A stretch of 64,000 nt of DNA, taken from NCBI GenBank assembly GCA_001662655.1, contig KV460215.1, one strand, 5' to 3'. Position 1 is the first letter of the stretch; the number at the start of each line of letters is the position of its first letter. The position numbers were made by a program, and so were the translations under genes. Below are positions 18,584 to 52,387 of the stretch, piece by piece. The notes under the pieces were generated by a model. The model had not been told where the DNA came from. It saw only the letters and a program-made list of their open reading frames with translations, and ran no database searches. The DNA is from Pseudogymnoascus verrucosus. Its lineage: Eukaryota.

Positions 18584-19629
18584 CTAAACAACAAACTTTG
18601 TTTTATTTTCTTCTCCAGCTTCTCTTGCAATCCTTGCGACTTCTTCTTCTCCAGCCTCGCCAAAAATATCATATCCCCACCTAGCTGGGAAATTAAACCT
18701 CTTATGCCTCTCTAATGCATCCAATTCCTTCATCGCACTCTCTGGCAACAATTTATCTTCAAAGTTGCTCTTAATTCTGCTATCCGTGACACTCTTCGGC
18801 AACACGACGTGTCCTGTTTGGACACCCCAGCTAACAAGCACCTGTCCGGGATCCAATCCCAATCCTTTACCAACCTCATGCACCTTCGCATCATCGACTG
18901 TGCGTGGCTCGCCTGTCTGGTTGTTTCCCAGCGGACTGTAAGCTTCCAGTAGAATGCCCTTGGACTTGCAGAAGGCAGCAAGCTCGGGTTGCTGCAGGTA
19001 AGGGTGTTTCTCGATCTGGTTTACTGACGGAATAACTTTGCAGTCCTTAAGAAGCGTCTCCAAATGCGGGATATTGAAATTTGAAATCCCGATAGCGCGG
19101 ACTTTTTTGGTTTCGAGCAACGCTTCCATCGCAGCGTACGTCTTGGTGAAAGGCGTGTCAGAGAGGCGGAAAACGCCAGTCTTTGGGTCTAGGGGAAAGA
19201 ATTTTGGACCGGCGGCGAAGGCGCATGGCCAGTGCATGAGGTACAGGTCAACATATTCTGTTCCGAGATCTGCGAGCGTCTTATTTAATGCTGATTCGAC
19301 GTCTTTGGGTTCGTGAGATGCGTTCCAGAGCTTAGATGTAATAAAGATTTCCTCGCGCTTCACGCCGCTCTTCTTAATGCCTTCTCCAACTTCGGCTTCG
19401 TTGCGGTAAATCGAAGCGCAGTCGATGTGGCGGTAACCGCAACGCAGAGCGGTTTCCACTGCTTGTTCAACCTCGCGAGGAGCTGCTCTAATGCTGATGT
19501 GTTAGCTTTTTGGACTGTGACAAATTGTTTCTTAACAATATAGGATTGGTTTACTTGCTGCCATGTTCCAAACCCCACGGCCGGGATTTTCGCGCCAGTG
19601 TTTAAAGTGAATGTTCGACCTAGAGACAT
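18584..19629 (-). CDS. Aldo-keto reductase (Gcy1/glycerol dehydrogenase-like)
   Basis: IPAVGFGTWQ, GYRHIDCASIY, ITSKLW, DLYLMHWP, AIGISNF, VNQIE, AYSPLG, VLPKS. One intron 19558-19488 with a GC donor. Confidence 0.95.
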
Positions 19630-19860: not shown

Positions 19861-19999
19861 GTGGGGTTTGAAGGCAACTTCGGATATTCGGAAAAGGACA
19901 TTTCCGTCCCGCCCCCGCTCTACGCTAGCAAGAAGGGGTATCCCCGCATTCGTCCCCATATATGTCGGTCCGCCAGTTCAACAGTCTTCCGAATCTCCG
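19861..19999. promoter_or_regulatory. CGG-N5-CGG elements and CreA-type sites in the AKR/TF divergent promoter
   Basis: CGGATATTCGGAAA at 19881-19894, reverse-strand CGGAGATTCGG at 19989-19999, GTGGGG at 19861. Confidence 0.65.
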
Positions 20000-20073: not shown

Positions 20074-22677
20074 ATGGGCCCCGCCACAGAACTAGGCACC
20101 ACTACCTTAAATGTTGAGAATAGGAAGAGACGAAGGGTCAGCAAAGCATGTGAGAGCTGTCGCATGTAGGTGTTTTTATTTACAACTCGGAGAATTGAGG
20201 TCTACCTATTAGATCCATATTATGGTTCCATTTTCCCTGTAAATTCAGACATGGATAGAAATTTATGCTTCTAATTCAATGGCTTCATGAACTACTGGAA
20301 AATAAGCATGGCTAACAGATTGAAGGAAGAAAATTTCATGCTCAGTTACAAAGCCCTGCATAAGGTGCTGTGAGGACACCATCGTTTGCGTATATGACGT
20401 CCTTGATGGAAGAAAGACGAGAGCAAAAACGAGGCAGCCGAATTCTCCAAGACAATCAACCACCAATACTGCTGTCTCTGTGGGAATAGAGCTTGAAAAA
20501 GCATCTACATCAAACGGTAGTAGTTCAAGTACCAAAGCTGTCTATGACAGCGGAGATCATTATGTCGGAGCTGCCTCGGGGCTATCTTTCTTACAGCAGG
20601 CTGTACAACATATCGAGAGTCAGAAAGGTTCGAACGATGCTGTCGGCAGTGCCGTAGATGTCGAGTACGCAAGCCCGGCTTCAGCTTCAATTTTCAACAG
20701 TGGGGATATGCCATCTCTGTCGCGACCCACCGACAGATTTGTGATGCCAAGTAAGGACGAATCAGATCGCATGCTGGCACGATACTTTGAATTTGCCACT
20801 CCTACCTATCGTTTCTTTCATCGGCCAACTGTTGAGAGTTGGGCGTGCCAGCTATGCTTGCGTCCAGATACGAGCAATTCTAAACAAAAAGAAAGTAGGC
20901 TTGAGGGTGTGAGAGCGGCGGCTGTATATTTGGTGTGGGCGCAGGCGATTGAATATGAAGACATGACTCAAAGAGGGTCAAAATCAAGGTGAGAAAATGA
21001 CATACAGGTTGAGTAATGCTTACTATTGTAGCGCACCTTATTTCGAGAAGGCAGTCTCAATTCTCGAAACCGAACCAGGGCCCCCACAACTCGAGAGTGT
21101 CCAGGCTCGACTCGCAATGTGTCTTTATCTGCTAAGCACGTTCCGTATCAACGAATGTTGGTACCGCTTTGGTATGACAACACTCATAATCATGGCGATG
21201 GGGCTGCATCGCAAAACCGAAACGTCAAGGAAAGTTGGGCTTGTCGAGCAGGAGTGTCGAAAGCGAGCCTTCTGGAGTTCCTACATTTTGGATCGTTATC
21301 TAAGCGTTATGAAGGGTCGACCACGTATATTCCGCGACGAAGATATTGATCAGGAATATCCGGTGAATGTAGATGACGATGACATGGTATTTACAGACAA
21401 AGACTTAATAGCAGTATTGCCTTTGAGAGGACTTTTGGATGCTTCGATCAACCATGCAAAGTTCGTTAACCGTAAAGAACTTCAACGTATAACAACATCG
21501 CTAACTGATGCAGGCTATCTACCATCATGGGAAATGCCACAGATATGCTCTATCCTCTTAGACCTTTGACCCGTGGAGAACTTCAGACGAAAGCGGGCTT
21601 GGTTACGAAGCTCCTCGACGATTGGGAACAAGGTTTACCTCAATTTTTAAGACCAACACATAGAACCTTCACTGGGAAACGGATGTTTGAACGTAAACAC
21701 TCCATGTCAGTAAATTTTAATTTTAAAACGTTAACACAGTGACAGGTCAGAATAGTGTTCTTAAGCTATCACACGCTCATATGCGGATTTTAATCAATCG
21801 TCAATTCCTACTCTCGAATTTTTCAACGCTGGGCCAGGTAGACAGACCTGACGACGATGATTTGGAACATCAGAAATATGTCCGCGACTGTATCAGTGCA
21901 GCGTATGTCATAATCGACACGGGTACGTCTTATTCTACAACCTTTGTATTATCACTGACCCTATTTAGTGGAAGGTTTTGTGGATGATGGCAATCTGTAG
22001 GTTAATCTGCGGCACAAACCATGGAATCACTAACTAATAGTCCCCCTAATTGCAGTATAAAAGGGTTTTGGTTTACACAATATATCGCCCTGTGTGCCAT
22101 CTCAACACTCTACATCTACATCATCCACCATCGCCTTAACCCGAATTCCTTGGTGTCACCAAGCGGTAAAAGCTATTTCGCAGCAGCTGGCAAGTGCCGC
22201 AATTACATCGAGAACCTAGCACCAGAGGGGAGCCATAGTAAGAGGTATAATACGCTGCTGACGCGGTTGAGAAATAGGGCGATGCGGTCAATGGGAGATG
22301 CTGTGGTTGATTCCGAGGGTGACCGAATGAGATATAATGCCACCGAAGTTAGTGGATTGTTGCCGCATAATCACCCGATTGAGCCAGTGTATAATGGGAA
22401 TTTTTACGGGGAAGGGGGTAATAACGAGCGTGGTGTAGGAATGGAGGCAGGCTTTGAGACAGGGGGTCAGGAAGTGGGTATACAAATTCCAGAATACCCA
22501 GACTCCGGCTCCGGCCTTATAATGGAAAATGATACCCTCCAGCTTACTTGGGGATATCTCGACCAGTTAGGTAGGTATTATGAAAGCTATATTGCCTATT
22601 ATTTACTAACAGAGACTTTAGGTTTGCCCGAACACTTTGATGCCTTTAGCACACAGTATGAGGAAGACTACTTTTAG
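20074..22677 (+). CDS. Zn(II)2Cys6 transcription factor with Fungal_trans middle domain, multi-exon
   Basis: RKRRRVSKACESCR...ISCSVTKPCIRCCEDTIVCVY split by an intron. YFEFATPTYRFFH, GLHR, ECRKRAFWSSYILDRYLS..GRP. Confidence 0.9.
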
Positions 22678-22802: not shown

Positions 22803-25800
22803 TTACAATCCTAGAACACCGAAAACCTCTTCTGCTAAATCCTGCGGCATATTCTTCGCATCCACTGGCAAAATATCAATTTCGTCAACCCGTGGTCCTT
22901 CCAAAATAGCCATTTGTGACTCCACCATATCAGCCTTCATATAATGGCCCGTCCGCATCTCCAGCCTTCTAGCCAACTCAACCTTTTTCTCAACCTGTAG
23001 CATCACAAACACGGTTCTAATCCTCTTCCCTACACCCCTCAGTACATCTCGATATCTGCCCTTCAGCGCGGAGCACGCCAGAACTACCACACCCTTACCA
23101 TTCGTTGAGATCTCGAGCTCGGCCTTAGCTCGTAGACGCGCAAGCCACAACCACCTGTCTTCGTCGTCGAGAGCTTGGCCACTCGCCATCTTAGCCAGGG
23201 CTTGGACATCATGGTGCTGGTCGCCCTCGATAAATGAACAATTCAGCTTACGTGCAATCTCTGTGCCTACAGTGGATTTGCCAGCGCCACATGGCCCAGC
23301 GACGACGATGATGGTGCCTTGGATATTTTCCGTGGTTTTCCATGATGTGGTGATGAAATGACCAACGAACTTGTCAACGAGTTCTTGGCTCAGGATCTCC
23401 GCCATCGCGAGAGCCGGCGATAGGCTTTGTGCACGCTGGGTGTTATATTGTAGGCCTTTGCGTACGATGTTGTCGTTGTCATATTTCTTGGTAAAGAAAT
23501 CGAGGAGCTTGATAGGTGGATTTTGCACTGGATCTGGGTTCGACGCCTTTAGACGCGAGATCCATTCACGTTGACCGAGTTCTTCGAACTGCAAGCTGGC
23601 GGCATGGAGTTTTGGGAGAAGGTCGCGCGTCCAGTGGAAGGATTGCGTAGCTACGACGTTTGTGGTTCCAGCCGGGGAGTCCGAGATAGAGATTTCGGAT
23701 ACCGCTTTCGCAACCACATCAACAGGTAGCCAGAGAGGAGACTCATCAAGTGCAGGGATGGCTCCAATGGTCTTGCCGGCTTGTAGAATCAGAGGTATGG
23801 CTTCGGTTGCGTTCCAGATTCCGTGTTGTGTGTCTGCAACAATTTGGCCCACACGTAAGGTGCGTGCTTTCATTCCGGTCTGACATGCGGCTTGGTGTAC
23901 GATGTTCTCTGTCACAAGTTTAGACTGTGCATAGCCCATGTTTTGTGCATAATCCAAGTTGGGCGGGAGGTCCTCAACAACGGCCTCTCCTGGAGGCGTT
24001 GATGCGACGGCGCTGACGGAGGAGCAGAAATTGAATGCTGCAGGTGATGGTCGACCAGCTGACAAGCAAAGGCCCATGAGATGCTTAGCTCCTGTAAAAT
24101 TGAATGATTAGACAATATTATTAGTTCCCTGACAAATTTCACTTACCTGCAATGCAGTCTTTCTCAAAACTCTGGAGACTTAAATTGAAATTCACAGACC
24201 AGGCGCAATGGATCAAGCACGTAATATTGAGGGCAATCTCAGCATATACTGCCGAGCCAAGTCCTAAGTCCTCTTTTGAGAAATCTGATGGAAGCGCGAC
24301 AATTTTTCTTCGAGCTTCAAGGGGCAACTGATGATAACAGCCTCGGGTGTTCATCGAGGATATAACGCGCGTGATGGCATCGCTTTCTGATTTGGCACGA
24401 ACAAAGCAGTAGACTTGTTTAACGCCAGGGAGCAGTACTATTTGGGCTATGATGTGTGCTCCCAGTGACCCAGTTGCGCCAGTCAAAACCTAAATCTTGT
24501 TAAAAGACGAAAGTCATGCCTCAGACATATATGACTTACAATGTACTGGCCTTCATTGGAATTAGGCTTTGGTATGTGATGTTGAAAGCTTCCATATTTT
24601 TCAATTAATTGAGCCATCTGCTCTTGAACCGGTATTGATTTAGAAGTTTGGCCATCCTGTAACAAAACTAGCTCTCTGGTCAGAGCATTAACTGATGGGA
24701 AATCAAAAACAAAATTCATGGCGAGTACCTTCCCAGACACCGGAAGCTTCTTCAGAATGAGCGAACGCAACTGTAAAGCTTGCAAGGAGTCAAGGCCAAC
24801 GGAGAAAAGATCGGTGTCATCGTCAAGCTCTCCTTGGCCATTCAAGGTGCAGACCTTCTCCTTCAAGAAGGCGCGGATCTCAGGCTCTGTGCTTGGAGCA
24901 TTAGTTGATGGTGATAGCTCAGATGTTGAGTAAACATCCTCTATCTCTTTCTCAAAGAGTTTGTAGAACGCTTGGCGAATAACAGTTCCCTTATCTGTTT
25001 GGGGACTATTAAATGGTTAGGAATAGTAGATAATTAATAGCAGTAATAAACTCACTACGTCGAGCTTGCTGGCAGAAGCTTCAACATCTCCACGGAGACT
25101 CTAGCATATCCTGGGGCTGCCGCATTAGATGACTCTACAACTGGCCAGATATGTTCAAGGATCCGGCTTTCAGGCATGCCGGCTGTCTCTTTGGATGGAA
25201 TAATCATCATGCCTAATTGAGGCCTCCCGTTACCGAAAACTACTGCTTCACGGACGTATTTGTTGTCGCGAATAGCCTGTTCCATGTCAGTTGGGCCAAC
25301 TTTCTCTCCGTTGAGAAGTGCGATTGTATCGTCGAGCCGTGCGCTGTACTTCCAAGCGTTTGGGATGCTGGGGTGAGGTGTGAAAAGGTCTTTCGTCGCA
25401 TAAGAACCATCTGATCTGTTTGTCGCCACTTTGGAAGGCCATCCGTCTAACACAACCAATTCGAAAAGGTCCAGTCCCCGAGATTCCCATCTCAGGAAAG
25501 GGATCAAGGTGGCTGATGGCCGTAGGTAGTTCCAAACTTTATCACTGCGGTCTCTGAATGAGGTCATCAATTGACCAGTCTCCGTACTGTTGCGACATAT
25601 ATTAGCAATTAATCTATTGGAATATGAGTCAAATCGCTGTACTAACGTGCCATAGTGACTGATGAGATTTACCCCAGCGCCGACTAGCCTATCCCCCAGA
25701 CTATCAGGGCACGCAGATCCACCAAACATCACCACTTGCAATTTGACGAGAGCCTTAATTCCTTCCTCGGTCTCTCCAAGTAACTTTAGGGCATACGGTA

Positions 25801-26750
25801 CGCCATAAAGTATTTCGAAACTGTGCTCAGCCATGATACTGAGTAGTGTGTTATGGGTGAGTGGTAGATTCGCATTATACATGTAAATCTTCTTCATCGA
25901 TGTGAAGGCTCGAAAAACGCTGCTAATACCATGTGCATGGAATAGTGGTAACGTGATGAACCCTCGCATATTGAGGTTGTTTTCATAACTAGATTGATGG
26001 TTAGTTGTGGCCATGAACCTAAATTGAAGGAGCTTACTTCGTAAGAGCAGCCCTATGAGTTTGAAAAATTGGTTTTGGCAATCCAGTGGATCCCGATGAA
26101 TGGATAATCCAGCAAATTTTCAGAGCCTCAAGCTCGAGATCGAGATGATAATCCAGGCAAGTATCCTGGTCATTCTCTCGAGTTGTAAATGCGTAAGATG
26201 CCGGTTGGGCAATTGGATAAGCGCTTAAATCAGGCATTGTTTTCCGCAATCGCTCTGCGGTCGTAGAAAACGACTCGTGGATAATTATGTCTCGGCATTG
26301 TGTACTCTCCAACAACGACAGGTACGCAGCATCAGATAACCTTGTTGAGAGGAACATCACTGTGAAACCTGACTTGGTCAGTGCAAGCACTGAAATCAAA
26401 TAATCCAGATTAGATGGCCCAAGCAATGCCACCACCTTTTCTTTCTCAGCGGATGACCGTCTTTGCGTCGTGTGTTGGACATATTGCTGTCCGACACGAT
26501 ATGCAAACACATCAAGTTCCCTGTATGTGTATTCGACGTAGTCTGTATTGTGAACTGGGTATGCAAGGATTGGCTCTTCTGGTTGATGGAAAGCTCGGAG
26601 GCGCATCAACTCATCAATGGTATGTGGGACATGATTTGTTGTAAACGTTCGCTGTCGTCTAGAATAGACTAATGAAGTATCGACTGGTGACAAGAAGCTT
26701 TGTGACGAAATATGCTGGATGGTCGAGGAGTGAGCAATATCAGCCGCCAT
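22803..26750 (-). CDS. NRPS-like A-T-R (carboxylic acid reductase type) enzyme with fused C-terminal gluconokinase-like domain, 6 exons
   Basis: Exons 26750-26038, 25988-25647, 25586-25056, 25005-24540, 24489-24147, 24091-22803. A: HSSGSTGLPKP, YGTTETG, TKDL, RLDD..NGEKV, TDKGTVIR. T: LFSVGLDSL. R: TGATGSLG, GYAQSK. Kinase: GPCGAGKST, EGDQHH, LDDEDRWLWL, ACSALK.RYRD. Confidence 0.93.
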
Positions 26751-26953: not shown

Positions 26954-27003
26954 GTGGGGTATTTCCGGCGTAGCGTTGTTTTCCGGATATTCGGAAATCC
27001 GGA
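26954..27003. promoter_or_regulatory. CGG-N5-CGG element and CreA-type site in the NRPS-like/MFS divergent promoter
   Basis: CGGATATTCGGAAA at 26984-26997, identical to 19881-19894. GTGGGG at 26954 and further CCGG triplets nearby. Confidence 0.65.
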
Positions 27004-27300: not shown

Positions 27301-29049
27301 ATGTCTAAGATTGATGTGCATGATGTTCAGTTAGTCGAGACAGTGACAACCACATCGGACGAGAAGCCTCTCGCGGCTGTTGACATTCGGGTCCCTCTAC
27401 CTAGTGAACTTATTCACCTTTCACTAGAGGAGCAGGACATCCTTGAAAAGCATATTGTTAAAAAAATGGACAGAAGACTGATGCCAATCATCATTGTCAT
27501 GTAAGAAACTCGCTCTATATATCACTTTGCGGCATTAACAAGAGTTCCTAGGTTTTGGTTGAATATTCTAGATAGAAATTCTATCGCCAACGCAAAGATT
27601 GCGGGACTCCCAAAAGACCTTAACATGAACAACGCGCAGTACAACACATGCCTTCTTATTTTCTATGTCGTACGTATCCCCATGACACTACTATGATTGC
27701 AAGCTTAAAAATGTACTAACTTCCTTCTAGGGCTATGTTCTCACCCAGCTTCCTAGCAATGCAATCCTGCCAATGGTTCGCCCGTCAATCTATATCCCAC
27801 TTGTCACTTGTGCATGGGGATTAATGAGCATGGCGCAAGGTTTCTTGCATAACTTCCAAAGCATTATGGTCGTGCGATTCTTCATCGGCGTTCTGGAAGG
27901 TCCTTTCTTCCCTGGGGTGATATTCCTTCTGTCTTGCTGGTACAAGAAAGAAGAGCTGGTAAAGCGCATAGCATTTCTCTATGGTACGTCTCATCGAAGA
28001 ACCGATCTATTCAATTCTCAAATACTAATTTGGCATGCAGCCGGAAATATCTTGTCGTCGTGTTTCGGAGGCCTCATCGCAGCTGGCATCATCGGAGGCA
28101 TGGAGGGGGTCGGCGGATATGCTGCCTGGCGTTGGCTATTCATAATTGAAGGTCTTGTGACAGTTGCGGTCGGCATTTTGGCCATGTTTCTGTTTCCCGA
28201 CTACCCAAGAACAACTCGCTGGCTCACTAAAGAGGAAGGACTCTTTGCTGAATGGCGTCTCGCGAATGAAGTTGCTGGTATCGTCGACGAAGACAGCTCT
28301 GGAATCTGGTGGGGAGTGTCACAGGCTCTACGCGACCCTCTTACTTACCTTTTCACCTTTATGCAAATGATGCTAACTACTGGCCAATCGTTCACTTACT
28401 TCTTGCCGTCAATTATCAAGACGCTGGGTTACAATAATACCATCACCCTCCTGCTCACTGCACCTCCTTATGCAGTTGCGTTTCTTGGGTCGGTTGCATT
28501 GGCATATTCGTCGTCTAAGAGGAAGGAGTTCTGCATGCACATCTGCTTTCCGCTTATCATCTCGGTTATTGGAAATATTCTCGCCATGACTGTTAATGGT
28601 ACCGGTGGGCGCTATTTTGCTATATTCTTGATGGCCTTTGGCGTCTACGTGTAAGTTTATTCCTCCAGAACAACACCACTTAATCACAAAAAACAACCTA
28701 ATAAACCCTCAGAGTATATAATGTTAACTACGCCTGGGTCTCATCGTCTATTCCCCGTCCCCGAGCTAAGCGCGCTGCATCATTAGCAATCATCAATTTG
28801 ATGTCCGGAGGTGCAACACACTTTTACACTTCATACCTATTCCCGGACAGTGACGCGCCCCGATACTACATGGGTGGTTCAGCGCTCACTGTTGCAGTGT
28901 TCTTTTGCGCTATGACCGCTATTACGATTCGTTTCTACTTAGCCAGACTAAACAAGAAGATTGAGGCTGCTGGTGGTGATGCGGAAGCTGCGCTCCGAGC
29001 TAACAAGGGACACACAGAGACGATGAAGGCTTTTAAATATCAATTGTAG
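27301..29049 (+). CDS. MFS transporter, allantoate permease / anion:cation symporter (Dal5/Tna1-like) family
   Basis: KMDRRLMP, LDRNSIANAKIAG, RFFIGVLEGPFFPG..LSCWYKKEELVKR, AWRWLFIIEG, LLTAPPY, DAPRY. Several short introns. Confidence 0.92.
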
Positions 29050-29205: not shown

Positions 29206-30891
29206 CTAAGCCTGGTCAAATAGAGGCGACTCTTCCAACATGTCTAGAAAGTCTAGCAAGCCTGCTGTGTCTGATGACGGTGGTAGAGAGGTTTCTTGGT
29301 GTATAACTTGTTCCCGAGGGCTCATCAACACCCAGCATACTGTTCCAAAATATGGCATCGTTAGTTCAAGGCCGGCACCACTTTTCTTCATCCACGAATA
29401 GTTGGCGCCGTCAGCAACCTGCTCCTCAATTCCTACTAACTTCTTTAGGATCTCTACCTCGAAGTTTGGCACATGCATCTCTTCCAATAAGCTAAGAACA
29501 TTATTGACAAGTGCCAGGTCTTGAGGTCGCTGGTGTTCTAGCGAATTTGCTTGGCCAAGTCGATATCCGTCAATATGTGCAAGGAGTAATACACACATGG
29601 CCGTACAAGCCTTCTCTTCAAATCCGAAATACGAGCCTCCCCTGTGAAAGCTGCGGATCACGAGGAAGCGCAAGAGAACCTCACGACTCGCCGAGCAAAC
29701 GACCAATTTGCTATAGGAGACATGTTCGTTTGTCGTAGGAGAGACAAGTGATTTTACGATGTAGGGCTGGTGGAGGACCACTATGAGGTAGTGATGGGTT
29801 AGTTGTGCGGAGAGTGTCGAGGTCTTCTCCAGAACATCGGCTGCAGCTAGACCGTGTAGAGAGCTAAATGACCACCAATCGGATGGCAGGGACCGTGCTA
29901 CTTGCTTTAAGGAGTAGTCAATCTTCAGTGTCTCATCGTACTCCGGCTCCCCTTGCCGCTGCATGCGTAGATTTCGTGCGATTATACGCCCTGAGACCAC
30001 GACATGAATGTATTTTAATTTTGACAGTGCATCGCCTCGAGGATCTGAGAAGTTGTTGTCTTCCACGGCAAATGGAAGTCCTAATCTCAACGACATGTAG
30101 CGGTCTGCCATGAGGAGAAGAAACCATATGCCCTCCGCGCGGTCCGTCATCTCGGTCACACCTAGCCCTAACAGCTGGGCGATAGCTAGGGCTCGACGAA
30201 ATCTCAGCCAAGCAACACGCGGGTTTCCGTTGTTGATATGATAGGTTGCTTCCAGAGTCAGCGCTTCCAACCCATCTAGAGAGTTCATTAAGTCGTCTTT
30301 AGACATGACATGCTGTGATGCAATTTCAATATAGCGTGCAGCTTCGTCCACCTGACCATTTGATTGTTGCAAGCAGATTGCGAGTCGTATCAATCTGCGG
30401 GCGAACTGTACTGGATGAGCAGATGGAGGCGGTGGCTCCTGCTGCACAGCACCCACCGCCCGTCCTGTTGGGGTGGGCATCAGGGTAAACTTTCCATGCT
30501 CTATGATTACTGCAGTAGTCGCTGGCGGTGGGAGAATCGAGTACAGGTACCTTCCCACAGAGAAGCTGGAGATTGACTGTGGTACGCTAAGTAGCATTGT
30601 GCGATTTGGCGATTTGTTTTTTTGTTCCTGTTGACCACGCTGTCGTAGCAGCTGGTCAACAAGCGTCTCGACACGGTCAAGATTATTCTCCATCTGTCCA
30701 CGGCTTTCGCTTTCGCCTGCACTTTCGTTATCTACAACGAACTCCTGACTGACGCATAACAGCCCTCGTTGCTGACAGGACAGACACACAGAGCATGGCG
30801 GCGTAACTTCGCAGCGTATCTTGCGGCGTTTGCACTCCCAGCAGCTGAATGTTTTCTTTCGCACCTTTAGCCTCTTGAGTGGTCTTGACAT
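29206..30891 (-). CDS. Zn(II)2Cys6 transcription factor (single exon)
   Basis: RKKTFSCWECKRRKIRC..PCSVCLSCQQRGLLC, AIAQLLGL, DRYMSLRLGLP, LHQPY. Confidence 0.9.
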   Translation of the reverse strand: MSRPLKRLKVRKKTFSCWECKRRKIRCEVTPPCSVCLSCQQRGLLCVSQEFVVDNESAGESESRGQMENNLDRVETLVDQLLRQRGQQEQKNKSPNRTMLLSVPQSISSFSVGRYLYSILPPPATTAVIIEHGKFTLMPTPTGRAVGAVQQEPPPPSAHPVQFARRLIRLAICLQQSNGQVDEAARYIEIASQHVMSKDDLMNSLDGLEALTLEATYHINNGNPRVAWLRFRRALAIAQLLGLGVTEMTDRAEGIWFLLLMADRYMSLRLGLPFAVEDNNFSDPRGDALSKLKYIHVVVSGRIIARNLRMQRQGEPEYDETLKIDYSLKQVARSLPSDWWSFSSLHGLAAADVLEKTSTLSAQLTHHYLIVVLHQPYIVKSLVSPTTNEHVSYSKLVVCSASREVLLRFLVIRSFHRGGSYFGFEEKACTAMCVLLLAHIDGYRLGQANSLEHQRPQDLALVNNVLSLLEEMHVPNFEVEILKKLVGIEEQVADGANYSWMKKSGAGLELTMPYFGTVCWVLMSPREQVIHQETSLPPSSDTAGLLDFLDMLEESPLFDQA

Positions 30892-30945
30892 TGTTTTATT
30901 TGCTGAATTGAAAACTGAACAATTTAACTTATTATGGTTTCTGCT

Positions 30946-31260
30946 TAACGTATTTCACAAGCGAGTGAGCCACGAAAACACTAAAAATTGACTATTGCTA
31001 CTACTACTATTCTACTACCTTACATAATAACCCTTATTCGATTGTAATTAATTTCTAGCGCCTCTTACACGTACGAGCATTATGCCCTATATTACCAAAT
31101 GTGCCACATCGCTGCTGTTAGCCTATAGAACCCACCTGCTGAGTAGTCCTACTTACCACCTCTATATAGAGTCGAGCATTAACCTTAGCACTCTAAAGGA
31201 TATCCTCTCCCACTGTCCAGTTCTCTTTGCCATCTAGCGCGATAAAGCTGAACTCATGGG
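30946..31260 (-). mobile_element. 3' end relic of a Fot1/pogo-type DNA transposon
   Basis: TA followed by ACGTATTTCACAAGCGAGTGAGCCACG resembles Fot1/Pot2-class termini. Minus strand at about 31117-31061 encodes QQRCGTFGNIGHNARTCKR, a degenerate CX2CX4HX4C knuckle as at transposase C-termini, flanked by stops. Confidence 0.75.
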
Positions 31261-31421: not shown

Positions 31422-32268
31422 TTAATACATAGCCCATCCTCCACTGGCACTCACAACCTGCCCAGTAACCCATCTACTCCCTTCGCTCGCCATCCACGAC
31501 ACAATCTGCGCAATATCATCGACCGTACCAATCCGATTCTGAACCGGTGTTGACGCCTTCTGCATCTCAACCGTCTCCTTCGGAATATTATCTATTAGCT
31601 GCGTCTGTACTGGGCCTGGGTTAACGCAATTTACTGTGTGTCCCTGAGCTCCGAGCTCGGCCGCCCAGCACCGCGTCAGACCTTCCAGTGCCGCCTTTGA
31701 GGAGCAGTATACGGAGAGGTTCTTGAAACCGGCACGCGCGCCGACGGAGCTGAGATTGATGATGCGACCAGGGGCGCGGAGGTGGGGGAGCACGGCTTGC
31801 GTTAGGAGGAGCGGTGCTCGGACGTTGAGGTCGTAAACGTAGGATAAGTCCGACGCGGTGATGTCTTGAAGGGGTTTGACGAGCTCGACGCCGGCGTTAT
31901 TGACAAGAATGTCGACTTTGGGACCGAATCTAGCGAGGGTAGCTTCAACGATTGCTTGTGCAGCGGATATTTGTCGCAGGTCGGCCTGGATCCCAATTGC
32001 ACTCGCGCCGTTGTCTAGATCGTTGATCTGAGAGATGAGCTCATCTACGCCTTTCGAGCTCCCTGGAGACGTGTATGTTATGACTATCTATTTCCGATGG
32101 GTCAGGATTAAATGTGCGAAGGAGAATATGATTGAAAGTCACCTTCGCACCGTGACGAGCCAGTTCAAGTGCTATTCCTGCCCCGATACCTCGAGATGCA
32201 CCAGTGACTATAGCAATCTTGTTCGCCAAGGATAGGGGGTTCGTCTCGTGCCTTGTATTAGAAGCCAT
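31422..32268 (-). CDS. Classical short-chain dehydrogenase/reductase (FabG-like)
   Basis: [51 protein letters not shown]. Intron 32142-32088. Confidence 0.93.
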
Positions 32269-33690: not shown

Positions 33691-34269
33691 GTGTGGGGAT
33701 GCACCTTAAGGTTTTGCAGAAGTAATCCTACCCTGCCATTTCATCCATAGTCTTAGTTATGAAGATATTTACATCCTCGGCAATTTAAAGTTACATTAAC
33801 TATGCTGTTAGTAGTATTGTTTATTATCACTTCCAACACTTTAATCACGTGGTTACGTAGCGAAAAGGTGTGGTTTCCGAGCGCGAACCAAACTTGTAGA
33901 ATTCTATGGGGCTACGGCCTTTACTTATGCCGTGGCCCCTAAGCTACTCTACCGTACGAAACCATGCCCGTACACATAAGGTTTCAGGAAGTTGGTGCCT
34001 TAGGGGCCTGATTCCTAGGGCCGGAATTACAAAGGGTGCCATATGCGCCAATTGCTAACATACCTCGGGAATTATGAGTACTCGGGAATTACCCCTGTAG
34101 CACTTCCCCCCCGCACAAATGCGGGGAGCCAAGGTGACTTAACTCCATTCCCGCGGCAGACCAGGATGTCATCCACCCCGACTCGATTGATATAATGATG
34201 TGCTACCCGCGGCAAGGTAAGCTAAATACAAATCCTCCTACAATCTCAACAAAACCTTGAATCGCCACG

Positions 34270-35618
34270 ATGAACTTTGATATTCCCCCCGATCTCAAAG
34301 AGTTCCTCTCTTCTCTGGACAGCTTCATAGAGAGAGAAATAGCTCCGCTTCAAGCTCAGGACGACAACGAGCGCTTCTTCGACCATCGTCGGGAACATAG
34401 CCGTACTGATTGGGAAAATGATGGCCTTCCGCGCCCAGAATGGGAGGCATTGCTCACTGAAGCCCGGCGCCGAGCTGACAAAGCTGGCTTCTACAGATTA
34501 TCACTTCCGGTCGAGTACGGCGGGCAAAATAAAGGCAATCTCTGGATGAGCGTCATAAGAGAACATCTGGCAGCGAAAGGTCTAGGCCTATTCAATGACT
34601 TGCAAAACGAGCACTCCGTCGTAGGCAACTTCCCCACCATTGTCATGCTTCTTAGCTTCGGCAATGAGGCTCAGAGGAAGGAGTTTATTCCAGGCCAGCT
34701 TGCCGGCAAAGTGATCATGACATTCGGCCTGACAGAGCCAGACCATGGTTCTGATGCCACGCATCTCGAGACTGTGGCGAAACCAGAAACTAGAAACGGT
34801 GTGAAAGGTTTCGTTCTCAATGGTCGAAAGAAATGGCAAACCGGCATGCATGTTGCAACGCATTGCATTCTCTTCGCGCGGACCTCTGGGCGTGCTGGCT
34901 CGACTAACGGCATTACGGCATTTATCGTGCCTGCTAAAACCCCAGGCATCAAAGTCGAGAGCTATGAGTGGACTTTCAATATGCCAACAGACCACGCAAC
35001 CATCTCACTAAACGATGTATGGGTGCCATCGACGGCAATCTTCGGGCCACCAACATCGGGCCTCAGCGTTGCCCAGGCATTCCTCCACGATAACAGGATC
35101 AGACAGGCGGCGAGTAGTCTTGGTGCCGCGACATTCTGTATCCAGGAGTCCATTAAGTACGCTAAGGAGAGGAAGCCGTTTGGAAAGGCGTTAGCGTGGA
35201 ACCAAGGGATCCAGTTTCCGCTCGTGGAGCTGCTGACGCAGACGGAGATGCTGAGGTTGCTGATCCGCAAGACAGCGAATGATATGGATAGTATGCCACA
35301 CAGGGACGTGGAGAAGAAGTTGACGGACAAGGTGAGCATGTGTAATTATTGGGCGAATAGGCTGTGCTGCGAGAGTGCAGACCGTGCTATACAGGTAAGT
35401 TCTCTCAGTCTGGGATAATGATATAGGGGCTGATTGAATGAAAGGTTCATGGCGGTGTCGGCTACAGCAGGCATAAACCCTTTGAGCATATTTACCGGCA
35501 CCATAGGCGCTACCGTATTACCGAGGGTTCTGAGGAGGTTCAGATACGGAAGGTGGCATTTAAAGTCTTTGGGCTCTCGGAGTTAGCGAAGGCCCAGAAA
35601 CAGGCCGCAAAGCTGTAA
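34270..35618 (+). CDS. Acyl-CoA dehydrogenase with peroxisomal PTS1 (-AKL)
   Basis: FGLTEPDHGSDA, LNGRKKW, ERKPFGK, QGIQF. Intron 35394-35444, then VHGGVGYS...YRITEGSEEVQ...QAAKL*. FarA-type CCTCGG at 34063. Confidence 0.92.
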
Positions 35619-45330: not shown

Positions 45331-48300
45331 TTACCAGGCCGCAGCATCCTTATCAAACCGCGCCAACTCCTTCCCCGCATCCTCCACATCCTTCTTCGCC
45401 TTCATGCGCATGTAAAAGATGGGACAATCCTTACTACTGCAAATAACTTCGCAGTGCATACTCTCCTGGCACCGCTGGCACTGCGTCCACAGCCTGCCAA
45501 ACCGCACCTCAAGATCGCTCACCTTCGTCAGCGTCTTCGTGTACAGCTCGCCCATACGCGGCGCGCAGTTCTTGCACACCGCGTTCCCGCTCTCCTCCTT
45601 CCCAACCAGCGGCTTCTTGCACCCCATGCACGTACTCGTCTTCTTTGCGAACTTCATCAGCCCACCGACACTAGGCGCCGCAATAGCCACGCTGCGCGTA
45701 TGTGCTCCCGTCAACAAACTGCGCGCCCGCGTCTCCCCGAGCATGGGCTCGAAAATTCGGCCGAGGGGCTTGGCTAGTTGGTTGTCTAGGTAGTACTTCG
45801 TGTCAATGGGGACATTATGCTCGAGCACGTAGAGCGGATCCTCGGAGCGCTCAAAGTTCTTGGCGCCTGCTGCGCCCTTGATGATGACATATGCCACTCG
45901 ATCGCCTAGAGTTGGGGCTGAGCCGGCGTCGCGCTTCCTCATGCGCTCAGCGAGCTCGACGTGCGCTTGCTTGTTGGCGTAATCGGCCTTGGCAAGCGCC
46001 TTGGTGATGACAAGCTTGGCCATGTCGACTTTATTCTGAAGCAGGTCCGAAATAGTGTCTTTAACGTAGCTGGATGGCTGTTAGTGAGTTATGATTACAT
46101 GGGAATGTTGAACTTACTCTTGGGCGCCTTGGACATCTTGGTCGATAAGAATCATGCGGAGGACCGTCTCGATAGTGGTTTGCACTAACCGACAGTTGTC
46201 TCTCCTGACGGTTTCGATACCTTTGGTGTCCATCTTGTCGTATTTGTCCGGATTCGTCCAGTACAGTCCAGCGTATCTCTTCTTGTTGATGAGAAGGTAC
46301 GGGAAGTAGACCTTTTCGAACTCCAACTTGATAGGCTTGACAAACTTTGATGATACGTATCGTGCAGCTTCTTCACCAAGCTTCATCGACTCGGCCAACT
46401 CTTTTGTGCCAAACTTCACCATGACTGAGTCAGTATCACCATAGATGACCTGTGCGTCGTGTGCATAGCCATTCGCAATTGTGTATTTTGCCTCCACTTC
46501 GGCCTTTGTCTTCTCAATCATTTGACGTCCATAACTGGTTGTGCTACCTGCAATTTCTAAGCAGGGCAACTTTCCAACAGTGGCACCTGTCAGTCCATAG
46601 ACGGAGTTGGCGCTAATCTTCAGCGCCAACTGTCTACCGTTCAGCACAGCCTTCTTAAAAGGGTCTGTCTCAACAGCCAGCTCCCTCTTGGCTTGCTTTC
46701 TTGCAGTAAGCAATTCGTCCAGAATTTGGGTCAGAAGACCTTTCCGTTGCTTTGCTGTGCAGAACATATCGCCATTCGGGGTAACAATATAGTCTTCGTC
46801 TTTCTTCAAGCCGAGTTTGTCAATGCTGGCCTTGTTCAATAAGGTGGTGTAACACAGGTTATGAGCCTGGATAATACTTGGATACAGAGAAGCAAAATCA
46901 AGGGTCGCAATTGGCACGTCATAATACCCTCGCGTAGGCTCGATAACTGTCGCTCCTTCGTACTGCTCGCCAGAGGCTTCCGTCCGCTGATTCGGTATAA
47001 CTAACTTCTGTTCGAGCGCTTTCCTGAATAGTTGACTGACGAATTTCACCTGTTGTCCGCGAGAAAGCAGAAAATTGAACGGGACACCAGTAACCCTAGC
47101 CATCTCGGTATAATTTTCAAGGCAGGAGAGCTTCTCCAAAAGTCGTTGTGGTAGGTACGCATCCTTCAGACAGTACACTGCCAACCTTCTTCGTGATTCA
47201 GGGGTTCCATTGAACAGCTCGGTGATCATGGTGTGGTGAACATCTTCCTTTTGCTCGCCGAGAAACTGAGCAGATACAGAATTCAACGTATAACTTCGCA
47301 GTTGGTGATCTCTCTGGACAAGTTGTAGTAAATCCAGTTGAAGTCGTCCGTTTGTATTTGTTGCCTTCGTATCTCTGTTCCCCATCTGTTTGCTGGAAAA
47401 GTTCGACTCCTTCGCCACCGACTTTATACTATGAAGACGAGACCAGTAGTCGAAACCGCCAAGCTTAAGATGCTTTGCACGGTCCAGTAGGTACGGGAAG
47501 TCAAAATTGGATATGTTGTATCCGATGATGATATCAGGATCAACCTTTTCGAGGAAGTCTCTCCATGCCATCAGCATCTTCTCTTCCCTTTGAAATTCGA
47601 AGATTTGAGTATTGACGATGAGGCTGGTGGTATCCAGACAGAAAACATTCCGGACGAATGGCTTCTTCTCACCATACCTGGTGACAACGTTCGCAATCTG
47701 GATGACTTGATCGTGGTTTGCCTCTGGGAAGATACCTTTGCGGCCAGCACACTCGATATCAAAGGACAGGATGCGAAGCGGGGCCATCTTGGACCATTCT
47801 CCCTCCGGTTTGTGGGCGATAAGGTCCCGGTATCCAATCTCTGCCTCGATTTGACAGTTTGACTGCCGTTCATTGGCGTTGATCATCTTGTAACTCGAAG
47901 CACGAGCTTCCACCCATGACATACCGGCCATTTTTGTGTCGACCATGAACCTCAACACATATTGGATGCTGTCGAACGTCAAAATCCCGCCGTCCGCTCC
48001 CTTCCACATCCCTTTCCAGTTCGCATTTCCGCCTTCAATGGTTGTCCTGACCCTGTTGATGAACTTCGGATCCGTAACTGTAATCTTCAGGTAGGGGCTC
48101 TGTTGATTGCCTTGGAACCCGTATAAGTTCTCTCTCATCACAATCTGTACTGAGTGGATTGCGGGTTGGTGTTGTGCTACTTGGCTTTCGAGGAAGACTT
48201 TAAAGCTCTCGCAGTCGGTTCTCACGAACGATACTGGCGCTGCAACATAGAGGTAGTGTAGAAAATCCGTAACGTGCAACATCACTGAATGTCCCGTCTG

Positions 48301-48742
48301 CAATAAGTCATCATCAGTATACGCTCTCCGTGGAGATGCTCGGAACACAAACCTCTGTGACACCAAACAGCTTCACCGTCGCCTTCCCACCATGAAGTGT
48401 GCCCTCCTCAGCCTCTATTTGCTGAAAGATCAGGTTGTCGGTCTCGGAGTTGAAATCGACCAGGGTCGGCCTGTCCCACTGTTGGTCCTTCTCTGAATTC
48501 TTATTCTTCAATCCTGTCATATCCTGCGTCAACTTCTCCAACACCTCCGACTCGAAATGACTCGGCTGGCTGGAGCCGGGCTTGCCCTTCGGTCCATTCT
48601 GTGACGACTTAAGTCGCGAAATGGGAGTCTCTACGCCTTCGAGCTTGCGTTTCTTCATCGAGGCGGGGGAGGAGTCGATATTTCGGCGGGCGCTCGACGC
48701 CTCACCGAATACCCGCTTCTGGGGTAAAAGTGCGCCGACCAT
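45331..48742 (-). CDS. POL3: DNA polymerase delta catalytic subunit
   Basis: [52 protein letters not shown]-terminal CysA/CysB. Introns 48352-48298 and 46117-46070. Confidence 0.98.
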
Positions 48743-48911: not shown

Positions 48912-50161
48912 TTTCAATTAAGCAGGAGCGCTACGCTATTTTGGGAAGGCATGGCACGTGACCATGATACAATGGTTGCCATCACGTGACAGTTTATAAA
49001 TATAGAACCGGGGCATCCCGCATGTCTGTTCCTGTTCCTGGATGGAACTATCGATTTATTTACTTCTTTTGTATTTGCATCAGTATCTTTTGATGTTACG
49101 GAATGGCGAATAAAGACCCCCAGTACGACAAATGAGGTAAAAATGGAAGGCGCAACCGGCTACTATAGCACAGCATATTGTGTTAACCCGATGCACGTAA
49201 GCACTTGATAGCAAATAGCGGCAGCCACGGCTGGATTTGCGACAAGCGTGAAGAGACTCTACTGCGTCGAGAATCTATGAAGAAAGACTTAGGAAACGAA
49301 AGAGAAGCATCTTACTGTATCTCACTGACTTCTAACTGCCATCTTACCGCATATCTGTCCATCTGCCGCGGCCTACTGTGGCGCGTAGATCGTGGATACC
49401 ATCTTGCTACATATCGTGATACGAATAACTCTCCAGGTACTGAACTGAATGGAATATTACCAAATATTCCCATTCACAAGTGAGAGTGAATCCAATCGAA
49501 CTCTAACTTGCTCACAATATTACAGTCCTCATCCAACTGCCGCGCGTATTTAGCGCACATGTATAAACATTCATACAAAAATCATTCTTTCTATCTTCCC
49601 ATCTTTCCACCTTCTATATTTATATCGACACATACGTAGGTCTATGCGCCCCCTTCGTGTTCCCCAATGAAGAATCTTGGCGGGTTTACAGCCTGTTTCA
49701 GCTTTGCATTGGTGGCGCTGTCTGCACTAACAGCCACCACACACGACTTCACAGCCAAAGATCGACGCCCCGACGAGGCCCCGACTCCACCCCAGACGCG
49801 CAACTCTTACCGTCGTCCTACCGTCCCGGTACTAGATTTCTACGAATCCATTTGACCCATCTACAACTCCACTTCCAAGCCTCATTCTTCACGGCTTGTT
49901 CTGTTATTTTGTCCCTTTATCAACACTCTCTCTTATACCCCGTTCTGTTCTTGTTTGTGAACGACTTCATGACCTGCAATCTATCTCATTTACCCTCTTA
50001 TTATCAACAGCCTGTCGCTTATCCAACGCGCGCATCCGAACCATTCACCCCCTTACGAAACGATTCACATCGAGAGACACAAGAGGGTCCAATACACCAT
50101 CAAGGCGACACGTCCTCCATATCATTGCCGCTGTCGCCCTAGAGGCTGAGGCAGGGCCATA

Positions 50162-51780
50162 ATGGCGTACAACAACTCACAGCCATATCACAGCGGCGGG
50201 GCGCAAAACCAACAACCCTATTACAGCAGCTACGACGACAACCGCGAACTCCCAAGACTACCCTCATATTCACCGCAGCCAGGCCAACCCATAGTACCAC
50301 AGCCCTCAAGTTCACCCTTCGTCGGCCCCTTCGACGACCACGTATACCCTGCGAGCCACAAGGGAAGCAACGCAAGCCTGGCGGGGAACTCGCCATACTA
50401 CGGGCAAGGAGAGGCTACCCCAGGAACCTCCAACGACTTCATACCCCTACAAGACCAACAGAGGCAAAAGACCCTACCAATGCGCCACCAATATCCCTCG
50501 CAAGACCATATATACGATGCGGGACCCCCAGAGGACCCCCCGAAGCCGAGACGCAGAGGGTTGGGCATGTTCAAGGGCGAGCCGGGTGTGAGGACGGCGT
50601 GGGTGGTCTGGTTCTTTACCACCATCCAGATTGCCGTCTTCATTGCTGAGCTTGTCAAATCTGGTCAGTTCTCCCATTGGTATACATAGTTATTAGACAT
50701 CATGCTGACCCTTCACAGGCCAGCTTACCGGCCTCCCGATCCAAGTCAAGCCGACGTTCAACCCCATGATCGGCCCCTCCCCCTACGTCCTCATCAGCAT
50801 GGGCACCCGCTACACGCCGTGCATGCGCCGCATGGACGCGATCCAGAACACCACCGAGATTACCTGGCCCTGTCCCTACTCCACCTCGACCGACCCCGAC
50901 GCTGCCGAAAACGCCTGCACGCTTTCCCAGGCATGCGGCTTCTACGGTGTTCCCGAGCCAGCCTACGAAAAGGGCCAGGCCGCGCCCAACCAGTGGTTCC
51001 GCTTCATCACCCCGATGTTCCTGCACGCGGGTCTTATCCATATCGGTTTCAACCTTCTCCTCCAGGTCACCATCGGCCGCGAGATGGAGCAGTCCATTGG
51101 CCCTATCCGCTTCGCCCTCGTGTACCTCTCCTCGGGGATCTTCGGCTTTGTCCTCGGTGGTAATTTTGCTGCATCGGGAATATCCTCCACCGGTGCTTCC
51201 GGCTCCCTCTTTGGCATCATCGCCCTCATGCTCCTGGAGCTCCTCTACACGTGGTCCGAGCGCCCCAACCCCTGGAGAGATCTTGCCTTCGTCGCCCTCG
51301 ACATCATCATCTCATTCGTTCTCGGTCTCCTTCCCGGCCTGGACAACTTCTCCCACATTGGTGGTTTCCTGATGGGCCTCGCCATTGGCATCTGCATCCT
51401 TCATTCCCCTACTTCACTGAGCCGCAAGATTGGCGCCGACGAGCCGCCGTACGAGACTGTTGGCAAGCGCGGGACCGGACCTAGTGAGGTGTCCCGCTTT
51501 GTGAAGGCACCGCTTGGGTTCTTTAAGGCGCGCAAGCCGTTGTGGTGGGTGTGGTGGCTTATTCGCGCTGCGGCGCTGATCCTCATCCTGGTGCTGTTCA
51601 TTGTGCTCCTTAACAACTTCTATAAATACCAGAAGGAGTGCTCGTGGTGCAAGTACCTGAGTTGTCTGGTAAGTCCCATTGATATTGTCCATCTATTGTA
51701 ACCCCGCTAACCCTCCCATGCAGCCCGTGAAGGATTGGTGCGAACAGGGCGATCTTAATTTCCAGAGTAAGGCAGGCTGA
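50162..51780 (+). CDS. Rhomboid-family intramembrane serine protease, 3 exons
   Basis: FNPMIGP, QWFRFITPMFLHAGLIHIGFN, catalytic GASG and HIGG. Introns 50664-50718 and 51669-51723. Confidence 0.93.
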
Positions 51781-52387
51781 ACCGTCGACATCATTGTCGA
51801 GGTCGATGCCGACGGCGACGCCTTGATGGTGTCGCGGTAATTCGCATGGCTACGGTGCATCCTTATGTAGGCAGCGCGCGATTTGGCGATTGCTTATGGG
51901 GATTTGGGACGGGGTGTCACCTTCCTACCATATTACATAGCTTCGGAGAGGACGAAAAAGCATAGGGACGGCGTTGCGTTGCCAGGCTTTCCGAGCACAT
52001 GGCTAAATTAATCCCATACCATGGTGGCATTTCGCTTCTCATGTAGTGTACAGCTAAGCAGACAGGAGTCGATAGACTCTCAAGTGGAGAAAGGCAGACC
52101 GGTGGGGAATAAACTGCTCCTCACGAAACAACGTTAATTTTTGTACTGTATCTCCATGATCTTGCCCGTCCCGTCTAGTTTTGTGTGCTTCGATATGTGA
52201 CATCCTGGCCATCATATGTAGTGCATCGATATATCCCACCCCATTCCTGATATCTACGAGTAATCAAACCCCCCACCGCATCCAAGCCATTAGAAACTCC
52301 CCCTTCCCCCAACCCGCCAGCCCCGCTCAAAAACACACAGCACAGTACTCAAACACCCCATCCCAACAACGCCTCAAGAAACCCCCA

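Follow-up and report, generated by a model that had tools for sequence, protein, structure and literature searches.

We analysed a stretch of 64,000 nucleotides (nt) from Pseudogymnoascus verrucosus (contig KV460215.1, assembly GCA_001662655.1), referred to below as the window, which carries a minus-strand gene for a protein with adenylation (A), thiolation (T) and thioester-reductase (R) domains followed by a kinase domain of the gluconokinase GntK/IdnK type. This gene, called A-T-R-GntK here, its domains and the surrounding features are collected in Table 1. Its six exons (26750-26038, 25988-25647, 25586-25056, 25005-24540, 24489-24147 and 24091-22803, stop included) are separated by five introns of 49, 60, 50, 50 and 55 nt, each with GT..AG borders, and the spliced reading frame of 3684 nt gives a product of 1227 amino acids (aa).

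Table 1. Features of the A-T-R-GntK locus in window positions (~, approximate boundary)
Feature	Position	Strand	Description
A-T-R-GntK gene	22803..26750	minus	Six exons, coding sequence of 1227 aa; model with GT..AG introns
Adenylation domain	24921..26588	minus	AMP-binding (PF00501), residues 55-368, and AMP-binding_C_3 (PF23562), residues 437-557
Thiolation (carrier) domain	24675..24866	minus	PP-binding (PF00550), residues 576-639
Thioester-reductase domain	23340..24486	minus	Residues 686-1049; Pfam NAD_binding_4 (PF07993), residues 686-929
GntK/IdnK-type gluconokinase domain	22824..23312	minus	Residues 1059-1221; TIGR01313, 1knq, fold match
Aldo-keto reductase	18584..19629	minus	Two exons, starts MSLGRTF...; most like AKR1A1 aldehyde reductase
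Zn2Cys6/fungal-specific transcription factor	~20074..22677	plus	Several exons; convergent with A-T-R-GntK
Major facilitator superfamily transporter	~27301..29049	plus	Divergent from A-T-R-GntK
Second Zn2Cys6 factor	29206-30954	minus	Past the transporter gene
Short-chain dehydrogenase	31425-32087	minus	Past the transporter gene
Acyl-CoA dehydrogenase	34261-35415	plus	Past the transporter gene
Near-palindromic CGG-repeat element	26980..26997		TTTCCGGATATTCGGAAA; promoter common to A-T-R-GntK and transporter
Same element, exact 14-mer	19881-19894		Promoter of aldo-keto reductase and transcription factor
Same element, 2 mismatches	19986-19999		Promoter of aldo-keto reductase and transcription factor

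We examined the integrity of the gene model by several lines of comparison. The window protein aligns end to end with an NCBI entry of the same length (P0001, 1227 aa, 'NRPS-like protein [Pseudogymnoascus sp. 24MN13]'; NRPS, non-ribosomal peptide synthetase) at 98.6% identity, with 17 substitutions; because this alignment contains no gap, the independent annotation shares the exon structure. The last exon is a single open frame that covers the latter half of the reductase and everything up to the stop (open reading frame 22803..24107), and the reductase-kinase junction lies inside it, in the same frame. When aligned to the window, one contig of run X1 omits exactly the 55 nt of intron 5, and a spliced form therefore exists. 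The junction itself was not bridged by any contig of runs X1-X3, and run X3 gave two 151-nt contigs within the kinase region. A DNA contig of run X4 spans the whole gene stretch unbroken. Among 80 metagenome loci fetched with the family alignment, 37 hold both the reductase end and the kinase, and in 36 of these the two are in one frame without a stop. Likewise, the kinase occupies the C-terminus in 196 of 197 domain-bearing proteins of at least 1000 aa.

An earlier note on this DNA, made from its letters, had described a single polypeptide in which A, T and R domains run into a kinase within the same exon. This description was borne out by the open frame and the gapless match to P0001, and every motif that it quoted is present in the 1227-aa product. 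The misassembly that it had named as a refutation did not materialize: the X4 contig, the match to P0001 and the metagenome loci together rule out both a misassembly and a merged gene model. Gene models joining two genes do exist in the family (P0334, with an aldo-keto reductase domain), but none was found for the window gene, and with a junction inside one open exon, here as in the independent metagenome loci, and a kinase so regularly C-terminal, the chance of an artefact is vanishingly small. Thus, the A-T-R-GntK fusion gene is confirmed as real and the first reading of the sequence as correct.

Pfam scans were made on the exon translations and on P0001. The adenylation domain shows the motifs SSGSTGLPK (residues 218-226), YGTTE (350-354), NGEKV (444-448) and TDKGT (532-536), and the phosphopantetheine-attachment serine of the carrier domain lies within GLDSL (599-603). 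The reductase carries TGATGSLG (687-694) and YAQSK (852-856) and terminates in the conserved ..FVGHFITTSW; its best match among solved structures was the reductase domain of the Neurospora crassa carboxylate reductase (8aep, E = 2.8e-30). TIGR01746 scored 80.6 bits, under its cut-off of 213, with a query holding half of the reductase domain only. The adenylation core motifs, the carrier serine, the terminal reductase glycine motif and the YxxxK signature are all present, as would be predicted for an A-T-R protein. The C-terminal domain is a P-loop kinase and not a second short-chain reductase, which separates the protein from the A-T-R1-R2 (ATRR) type.

For the tail, Pfam P-loop kinase families match residues 1060-1221, the NCBIfam model TIGR01313 (gluconokinase, GntK/IdnK type) gave 159.6 bits, its curated cut-off being 113.75, and the Escherichia coli gluconate kinase 1knq matched with E = 2.9e-26; the match of the kinase domain is far beyond chance. 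The characteristic motifs follow one another as GPCGAGKST (1064-1072), EGDQHH (1087-1092), KMASG...DEDRWLWL (1099-1115), ACSALK..YRD (1137-1147), RTGHYM (1178-1183) and MVESQ (1187-1191). An AlphaFold model of the last exon had a mean pLDDT of 81 (75-90 over the kinase domain), and Foldseek searches with this model returned gluconokinases first (3t61, 1knq and 4eun; target TM 0.82-0.90), then thioester reductases. The two equivalog models were not reached (NF008583, E. coli GntK, 117.1 against 265; NF007336, IdnK, 99.5 against 304), and membership among the gluconokinases is valid at the subfamily level only.

The conservation of the kinase was assessed by comparing 91 fused tails with 117 stand-alone gluconokinases, using columns conserved at 80% or more in the latter. 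The window protein and the 91 fused tails retain every column that is invariant or nearly so in the stand-alone enzymes. These columns include the P-loop G..G.GK, D1089, H1092, M1100, D1110-R1111, W1114 and C1138-S-A-L, together with R1146, R1174, R1178, H1181, Q1191 and E1196. The fused tail is 40-50% identical to stand-alone bacterial and fungal gluconokinases, and about 35-49% identical in the comparison with E. coli GntK and the stand-alone fungal enzymes. Judging from these residues, the fused kinase looks functional. The tail might instead act here as a sensor of sugar acids or nucleotides, or as a kinase whose target has shifted to the alcohol or aldehyde that the reductase makes; its dispensability in several lineages, described below, and the missed E. 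coli GntK and IdnK cut-offs would agree with this. We find it very improbable, given that catalytic and family-invariant residues are kept in 91 fusions, that the TIGR01313 subfamily cut-off is passed and that the predicted fold matches.

The fusion was then considered at the family level. When the last exon was searched against longer proteins, 580 matches were obtained. Among the 120 matches listed, all 120 contain the gluconokinase domain, as judged by a hidden Markov model built from stand-alone kinases only, and 90 of these are at least 1150 aa long. Fusions, in hundreds of proteins, occur in four classes of Pezizomycotina (Leotiomycetes, Dothideomycetes, Eurotiomycetes and Sordariomycetes). 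Twenty-two aligned members share about 50% identity, with all catalytic motifs nearly invariant. These sequence comparisons indicate a fusion that is widespread, old and conserved in fungi. As a separate observation, some Aspergillus gene models extend further: P0334 (1354 aa) merges an A-T-R protein with an aldo-keto reductase domain, and P0384, P0394, P0400, P0402, P0408, P0410, P0413, P0424 and P0436 (~1700-1830 aa) combine A-T-R with Zn_clus and Fungal_trans domains. Such models may represent genuine additional fusions, or else the annotation has run on into the conserved neighbours.

The architecture has also been listed in genome surveys, as Aspergillus flavus AFLA_054270 (1251 aa, 'A-T-R-gntK'; PMC4073137), Phialocephala subalpina PAC_02202 (1227 aa, 'A-T-R-Kinase'; PMC5148876) and Aspergillus niger NRRL3_02852 (coding sequence of 3732 nt, 'A-T-R-Ki'; PMC12368960). 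In these three survey tables the proteins are filed as secondary-metabolite backbones, without function, substrate or pathway. Since the architecture is already catalogued, and in view of the hundreds of proteins that carry it, the claim that it was undescribed fails and is ruled out by the three listings; what stands of the novelty proposed by the earlier note is the lack of a characterized member. Our search of the openly accessible literature found no biochemically characterized A-T-R-GntK protein and no use of 'galactarate reductase', 'glucarate reductase' or similar terms.

In a FastTree phylogeny the 91 fused tails form one clade (support 0.991), and the kinase fusion appears to be of single origin. 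Five short proteins group inside this clade; several of them lie on ~1-kb contigs and may be fragments. The tail is not present in all relatives. In the kinase-less orthologues L021-L024, L027-L030 and L047 the frame ends 6-8 residues past the reductase-final '..TSW'. In another one (L001:3399-3500) the '..TSW' is followed by ~26 residues resembling the extreme C-terminus of the kinase (..IDETDVIPIDV..), which look like the relic of an internal kinase deletion. In the tree of the reductase segment the rows without a kinase fall at several points within the kinase-bearing ones, and the tail has therefore been lost more than once. Kinase-less relatives of ~1040 aa are found in Pezizomycetes (Tuber, Morchella, Pyronema), and a search from a Tuber-like kinase-less locus showed that many Aspergillus species hold such relatives as well (~1040-1055 aa). 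In A. cavernicola a fusion (P0313) coexists with a stand-alone gluconokinase (P0138). This stand-alone enzyme and the repeated tail losses would fit a kinase that uses a free metabolite which a housekeeping enzyme also handles. Other GntK fusions were seen among the relatives, namely a transporter of the major facilitator superfamily (MFS) joined to GntK (P0238, 769 aa), GntK with a lactate-racemase N-terminal domain (P0209, 612 aa) and GntK with an RmlD-like reductase (P0157, 426 aa).

These losses bear on two ideas of the earlier note. It had allowed for a fusion missing from orthologues, which proved true of several syntenic ones, although the fusion itself is widespread. It had also proposed that the enzyme couples reduction to phosphorylation; the syntenic orthologues lacking the kinase argue against an obligatory coupling of the kinase to a tethered intermediate.

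We further analysed the neighbourhood of the gene. The adjacent aldo-keto reductase (AKR) is closest to AKR1A1 aldehyde reductase (E = 3e-68) and resembles aldose reductases too; AKR1A1 is a glucuronate reductase. The MFS neighbour is of the anion:cation symporter type and falls in the D-galactonate-transporter subfamily with a score below that model's cut-off. Synteny was examined in 19 loci whose flanks extend at least 6 kb upstream and 2.5 kb downstream: the AKR was found in 17, the transcription factor in 18 and the MFS transporter in 12. Three near-duplicate sets occur among the 19 loci, and about 14 distinct loci remain, 12 of them with the AKR. The syntenic AKRs are 60-78% identical and thus conserved more strongly than the reductase. 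The second Zn2Cys6 factor and the short-chain dehydrogenase recurred in none of 54 related loci and therefore are probably outside the cluster.

The promoter shared by A-T-R-GntK and the transporter contains a near-palindromic CGG-repeat element with two overlapping matches (26980-26993 and 26984-26997). The underlying 14-mer bears two CGG triplets, and an exact copy of it is found in both divergent promoters. With up to 2 mismatches allowed over the 64 kb, all four matches fall in these two intergenic regions, against 0.45 expected by chance. The element is a candidate binding site for the Zn2Cys6 regulator of the cluster. Outside the window, the exact 11-mer was found in 0 of 80 fetched loci and a relaxed TCCG-N6-CGGA within 900 nt upstream in 2 of 29, so that conservation across species is not established. 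Farther along, the window contains a housekeeping gene for a family B DNA polymerase (46117-48372, minus strand) whose N-terminal domain is POL3-like (delta catalytic subunit), and a segment (50000-56000) of higher G+C (0.57-0.63, against ~0.45-0.50 around A-T-R-GntK) with many overlapping long open reading frames on both strands.

Expression data are available for A. niger. ASPNIDRAFT_170633 clusters at 90% identity with the A. niger A-T-R-GntK protein P0274 (1243 aa), which is among the top family matches and whose length agrees with the 3732-nt coding sequence of NRRL3_02852; gene order and lengths around 170633, as given in the supplementary tables, match those from NRRL3_02852 to 02857. 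In the supplement of PMC5153877 (A. niger ATCC 1015), 170633 ('Anig5 ID') is gene 1082594 on chr_202, with 3794 nt. The A. niger orthologue of the window gene is, on these tables, 170633/1082594 (chr_202) and not 39114 (chr_701). In the search from the Tuber-like kinase-less locus, no A. niger protein was among the 120 matches listed.

On galactaric acid, 1082594 rose from 0.016 to 50.5 and then 60.4 fragments per kilobase per million (FPKM), which places it in the fourth row by fold induction, and its AKR neighbour 1082229 rose from 0.25 to 22 and 45 FPKM (88-fold) (PMC5153877). Neither of these two genes appears to be discussed or deleted in that study. In the same source, the A-T-R-like gene 39114 and the AKR gene 1090836 are induced about 8000-fold, and galactarate use is impaired when either of them is deleted. 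No enzyme activity of 39114 could be demonstrated there; the passage concerned mentions nicotinamide cofactors only and neither ATP nor a phosphopantetheinyl transferase. According to that source 39114 gives a 3.2-kb transcript from chr_701, and it is not the kinase fusion. In the supplement of PMC12368960 NRRL3_02852 is silent in all strains. Separately, 1183117 (isocitrate/isopropylmalate dehydrogenase family) responds transiently to galactaric acid, with ~7400-fold induction at 5 h and baseline levels again at 18 h; the sugar transporter 1084943 adjoins it on chr_302, and neither is among the deleted genes listed in PMC5153877. According to a 2016 study and a 2019 review by the same group, no fungal galactarate pathway has been described, and the known fungal D-glucuronate pathway ends in D-gluconate and gluconokinase (2019 review).

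The nature of the neighbours and the carbon-source response can be weighed against the published filing of this gene. As a secondary-metabolite backbone, the protein would be an NRPS-like reductase freeing an aldehyde for a small natural product, and its kinase would modify that product or one of its precursors. SMURF and curated lists do file orthologues as NRPS-like backbones with a nearby transcription factor, and the A. niger and A. flavus genes are silent in the survey data under standard conditions. Against this, the family is single-module with ~50% identity across four classes, conservation among its partners is limited to an AKR, a regulator and an anion transporter, induction follows a carbon source and the kinase is of the unmodified primary-metabolism type. 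Similarly, neither tailoring enzymes alongside nor a patchy, lineage-restricted distribution, as seen in secondary-metabolite clusters, was found here. We hold this explanation to be distinctly improbable. A conserved, carbon-source-induced cluster of importer, reductase and AKR with an unmodified gluconokinase most likely fits catabolism over natural-product synthesis.

We therefore consider a bifunctional enzyme of sugar-acid catabolism with an active gluconate-type kinase, a reading to which we give even chances. More specifically, and only tentatively, we propose an aldarate route from D-glucarate through a uronate to D-gluconate and 6-phosphogluconate, the substrates and the order of steps being those that the context suggests. 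The MFS importer would bring in a hexaric (aldaric) acid, with D-glucarate as the best fit. The A domain would adenylate one carboxylate and load the T domain, and the R domain would use NADPH to reduce the thioester to a uronic aldehyde (D-glucarate to L-guluronate). The neighbouring AKR would convert the uronic aldehyde to an aldonate (L-guluronate to D-gluconate), which the fused kinase would phosphorylate to 6-phosphogluconate, feeding the pentose phosphate pathway. Reduction at the other end of D-glucarate would give D-glucuronate and thus join the known fungal pathway to D-gluconate. The Zn2Cys6 regulator would act with the enzyme, the AKR and the MFS transporter as a cluster. The sugar-acid substrate suggested by the earlier note is in line with the AKR, the organic-anion transporter and the response of the A. 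niger orthologue to galactaric acid reported in PMC5153877. As described there, 39114 and 1090836 provide a genetic precedent for the use of a reductase plus an AKR on aldarates. Possibly, though less likely than not, a reductive pathway for aldarates in filamentous ascomycetes has the A-T-R-GntK family as its missing core, galactarate being handled via putative paralogues such as 39114.

Several points weigh against this proposal. In the favoured route the two fused activities are not consecutive steps. The sole Protein Data Bank match of the A domain was a benzoate-CoA ligase (E = 0.0087), and no specificity code for this domain could be derived from the solved structures of that database. 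Activated polyhydroxy acids tend, on chemical grounds, to lactonize, and we know of no precedent for their adenylation. The conserved kinase residues cannot discriminate gluconate from its epimers, and no characterized member was found in the literature searched. The expression data cover galactaric acid and not D-glucarate, and the induction of 1082594 may be a cross-induction or indirect. When the neighbouring regulator NRRL3_02857 was overexpressed (4019 transcripts per million, TPM), NRRL3_02852 stayed at 0.07 TPM in the PMC12368960 supplement, and in the data of PMC5153877 the neighbouring regulator is not induced by galactarate. Finally, loss of 39114 alone stops galactarate use in A. 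niger, and therefore A-T-R-GntK cannot perform that first step at its own level, 1082594 being expressed ~100-fold below 39114 on galactaric acid (PMC5153877).

The first of these points is met by an aldonate route, in which the kinase would act first on gluconate or an epimer (e.g. galactonate) and the A-T-R part would reduce the C1 carboxylate of the 6-phospho-aldonate or of the free aldonate, giving an aldose 6-phosphate or an aldose. In A. niger the 39114/AKR pair would first convert galactarate to galactonate, and this reduction would come second. The fused activities would then be consecutive, which is usually why enzymes become fused; the kinase domain is predicted to bind aldonates from its family membership, the neighbouring AKR is also similar to aldose reductases, and the galactarate data of PMC5153877 show two reductase-plus-AKR pairs co-induced in A. 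niger. For gluconate, however, such a route would be wasteful, 6-phosphogluconate being already a central metabolite in established biochemistry. A sugar-phosphate product needs no aldehyde-reducing partner, yet the AKR is the best-conserved neighbour, and several orthologues manage without the kinase. We regard the aldonate route as fairly unlikely and retain, tentatively, the aldarate route.

The window gene is thus a further member of an architecture catalogued without function. The context assembled here ties the A-T-R-GntK family to fungal aldaric-acid breakdown, an acknowledged gap that is still unsolved, and makes the question testable. Galactaric and glucaric acids are wanted bio-based chemicals whose catabolism has to be removed from production strains, and the conserved cluster of reductase, AKR, kinase and transporter offers a directly testable hypothesis together with deletion targets. 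Carboxylate reductases accepting polyhydroxy acids would be new biocatalysts. If the proposal is true, the family would supply the first demonstrated case of an adenylating reductase working on a sugar acid in primary carbon catabolism, and a whole class of 'NRPS-like secondary metabolite clusters' would have been mis-filed, cluster-mining tools listing a probable catabolic enzyme as a secondary-metabolite backbone.

Compared with known systems, AFLA_054270, PAC_02202 and NRRL3_02852 belong to the same gene family as the window gene, with the same four-domain architecture and length. A. niger 39114 with AKR 1090836 combines an A-T-R-type gene and an aldo-keto reductase in the logic proposed here; as described in PMC5153877, 39114 differs from the window gene in having no kinase tail and in not being clustered with its AKR. 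The ATRR glycine betaine reductase (bioRxiv 10.1101/559534) is, according to that source, another NRPS-like reductase that serves primary metabolism across fungi and bears an additional catalytic domain at its C-terminus; this domain is a second short-chain reductase where the window protein has a P-loop kinase. Carboxylic acid reductases (N. crassa 8aep, Segniliparus 5mso) share with the window protein the A-T-R logic and the NADPH-dependent release of an aldehyde but, unlike it, are without a kinase domain. Sequence similarity between the window A domain and any solved structure is almost nil. Known substrates of carboxylic acid reductases are aromatic or aliphatic acids. E. coli GntK (1knq) and the stand-alone fungal gluconokinases have the same invariant residues and the same fold as the window tail, but unlike E. 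coli GntK the window kinase is the C-terminal domain of a 1227-aa protein. Finally, the aspartokinase-homoserine dehydrogenase ThrA, whose folds and chemistry are unrelated to those of the window protein, is a kinase-reductase fusion that carries out non-consecutive steps of one pathway.

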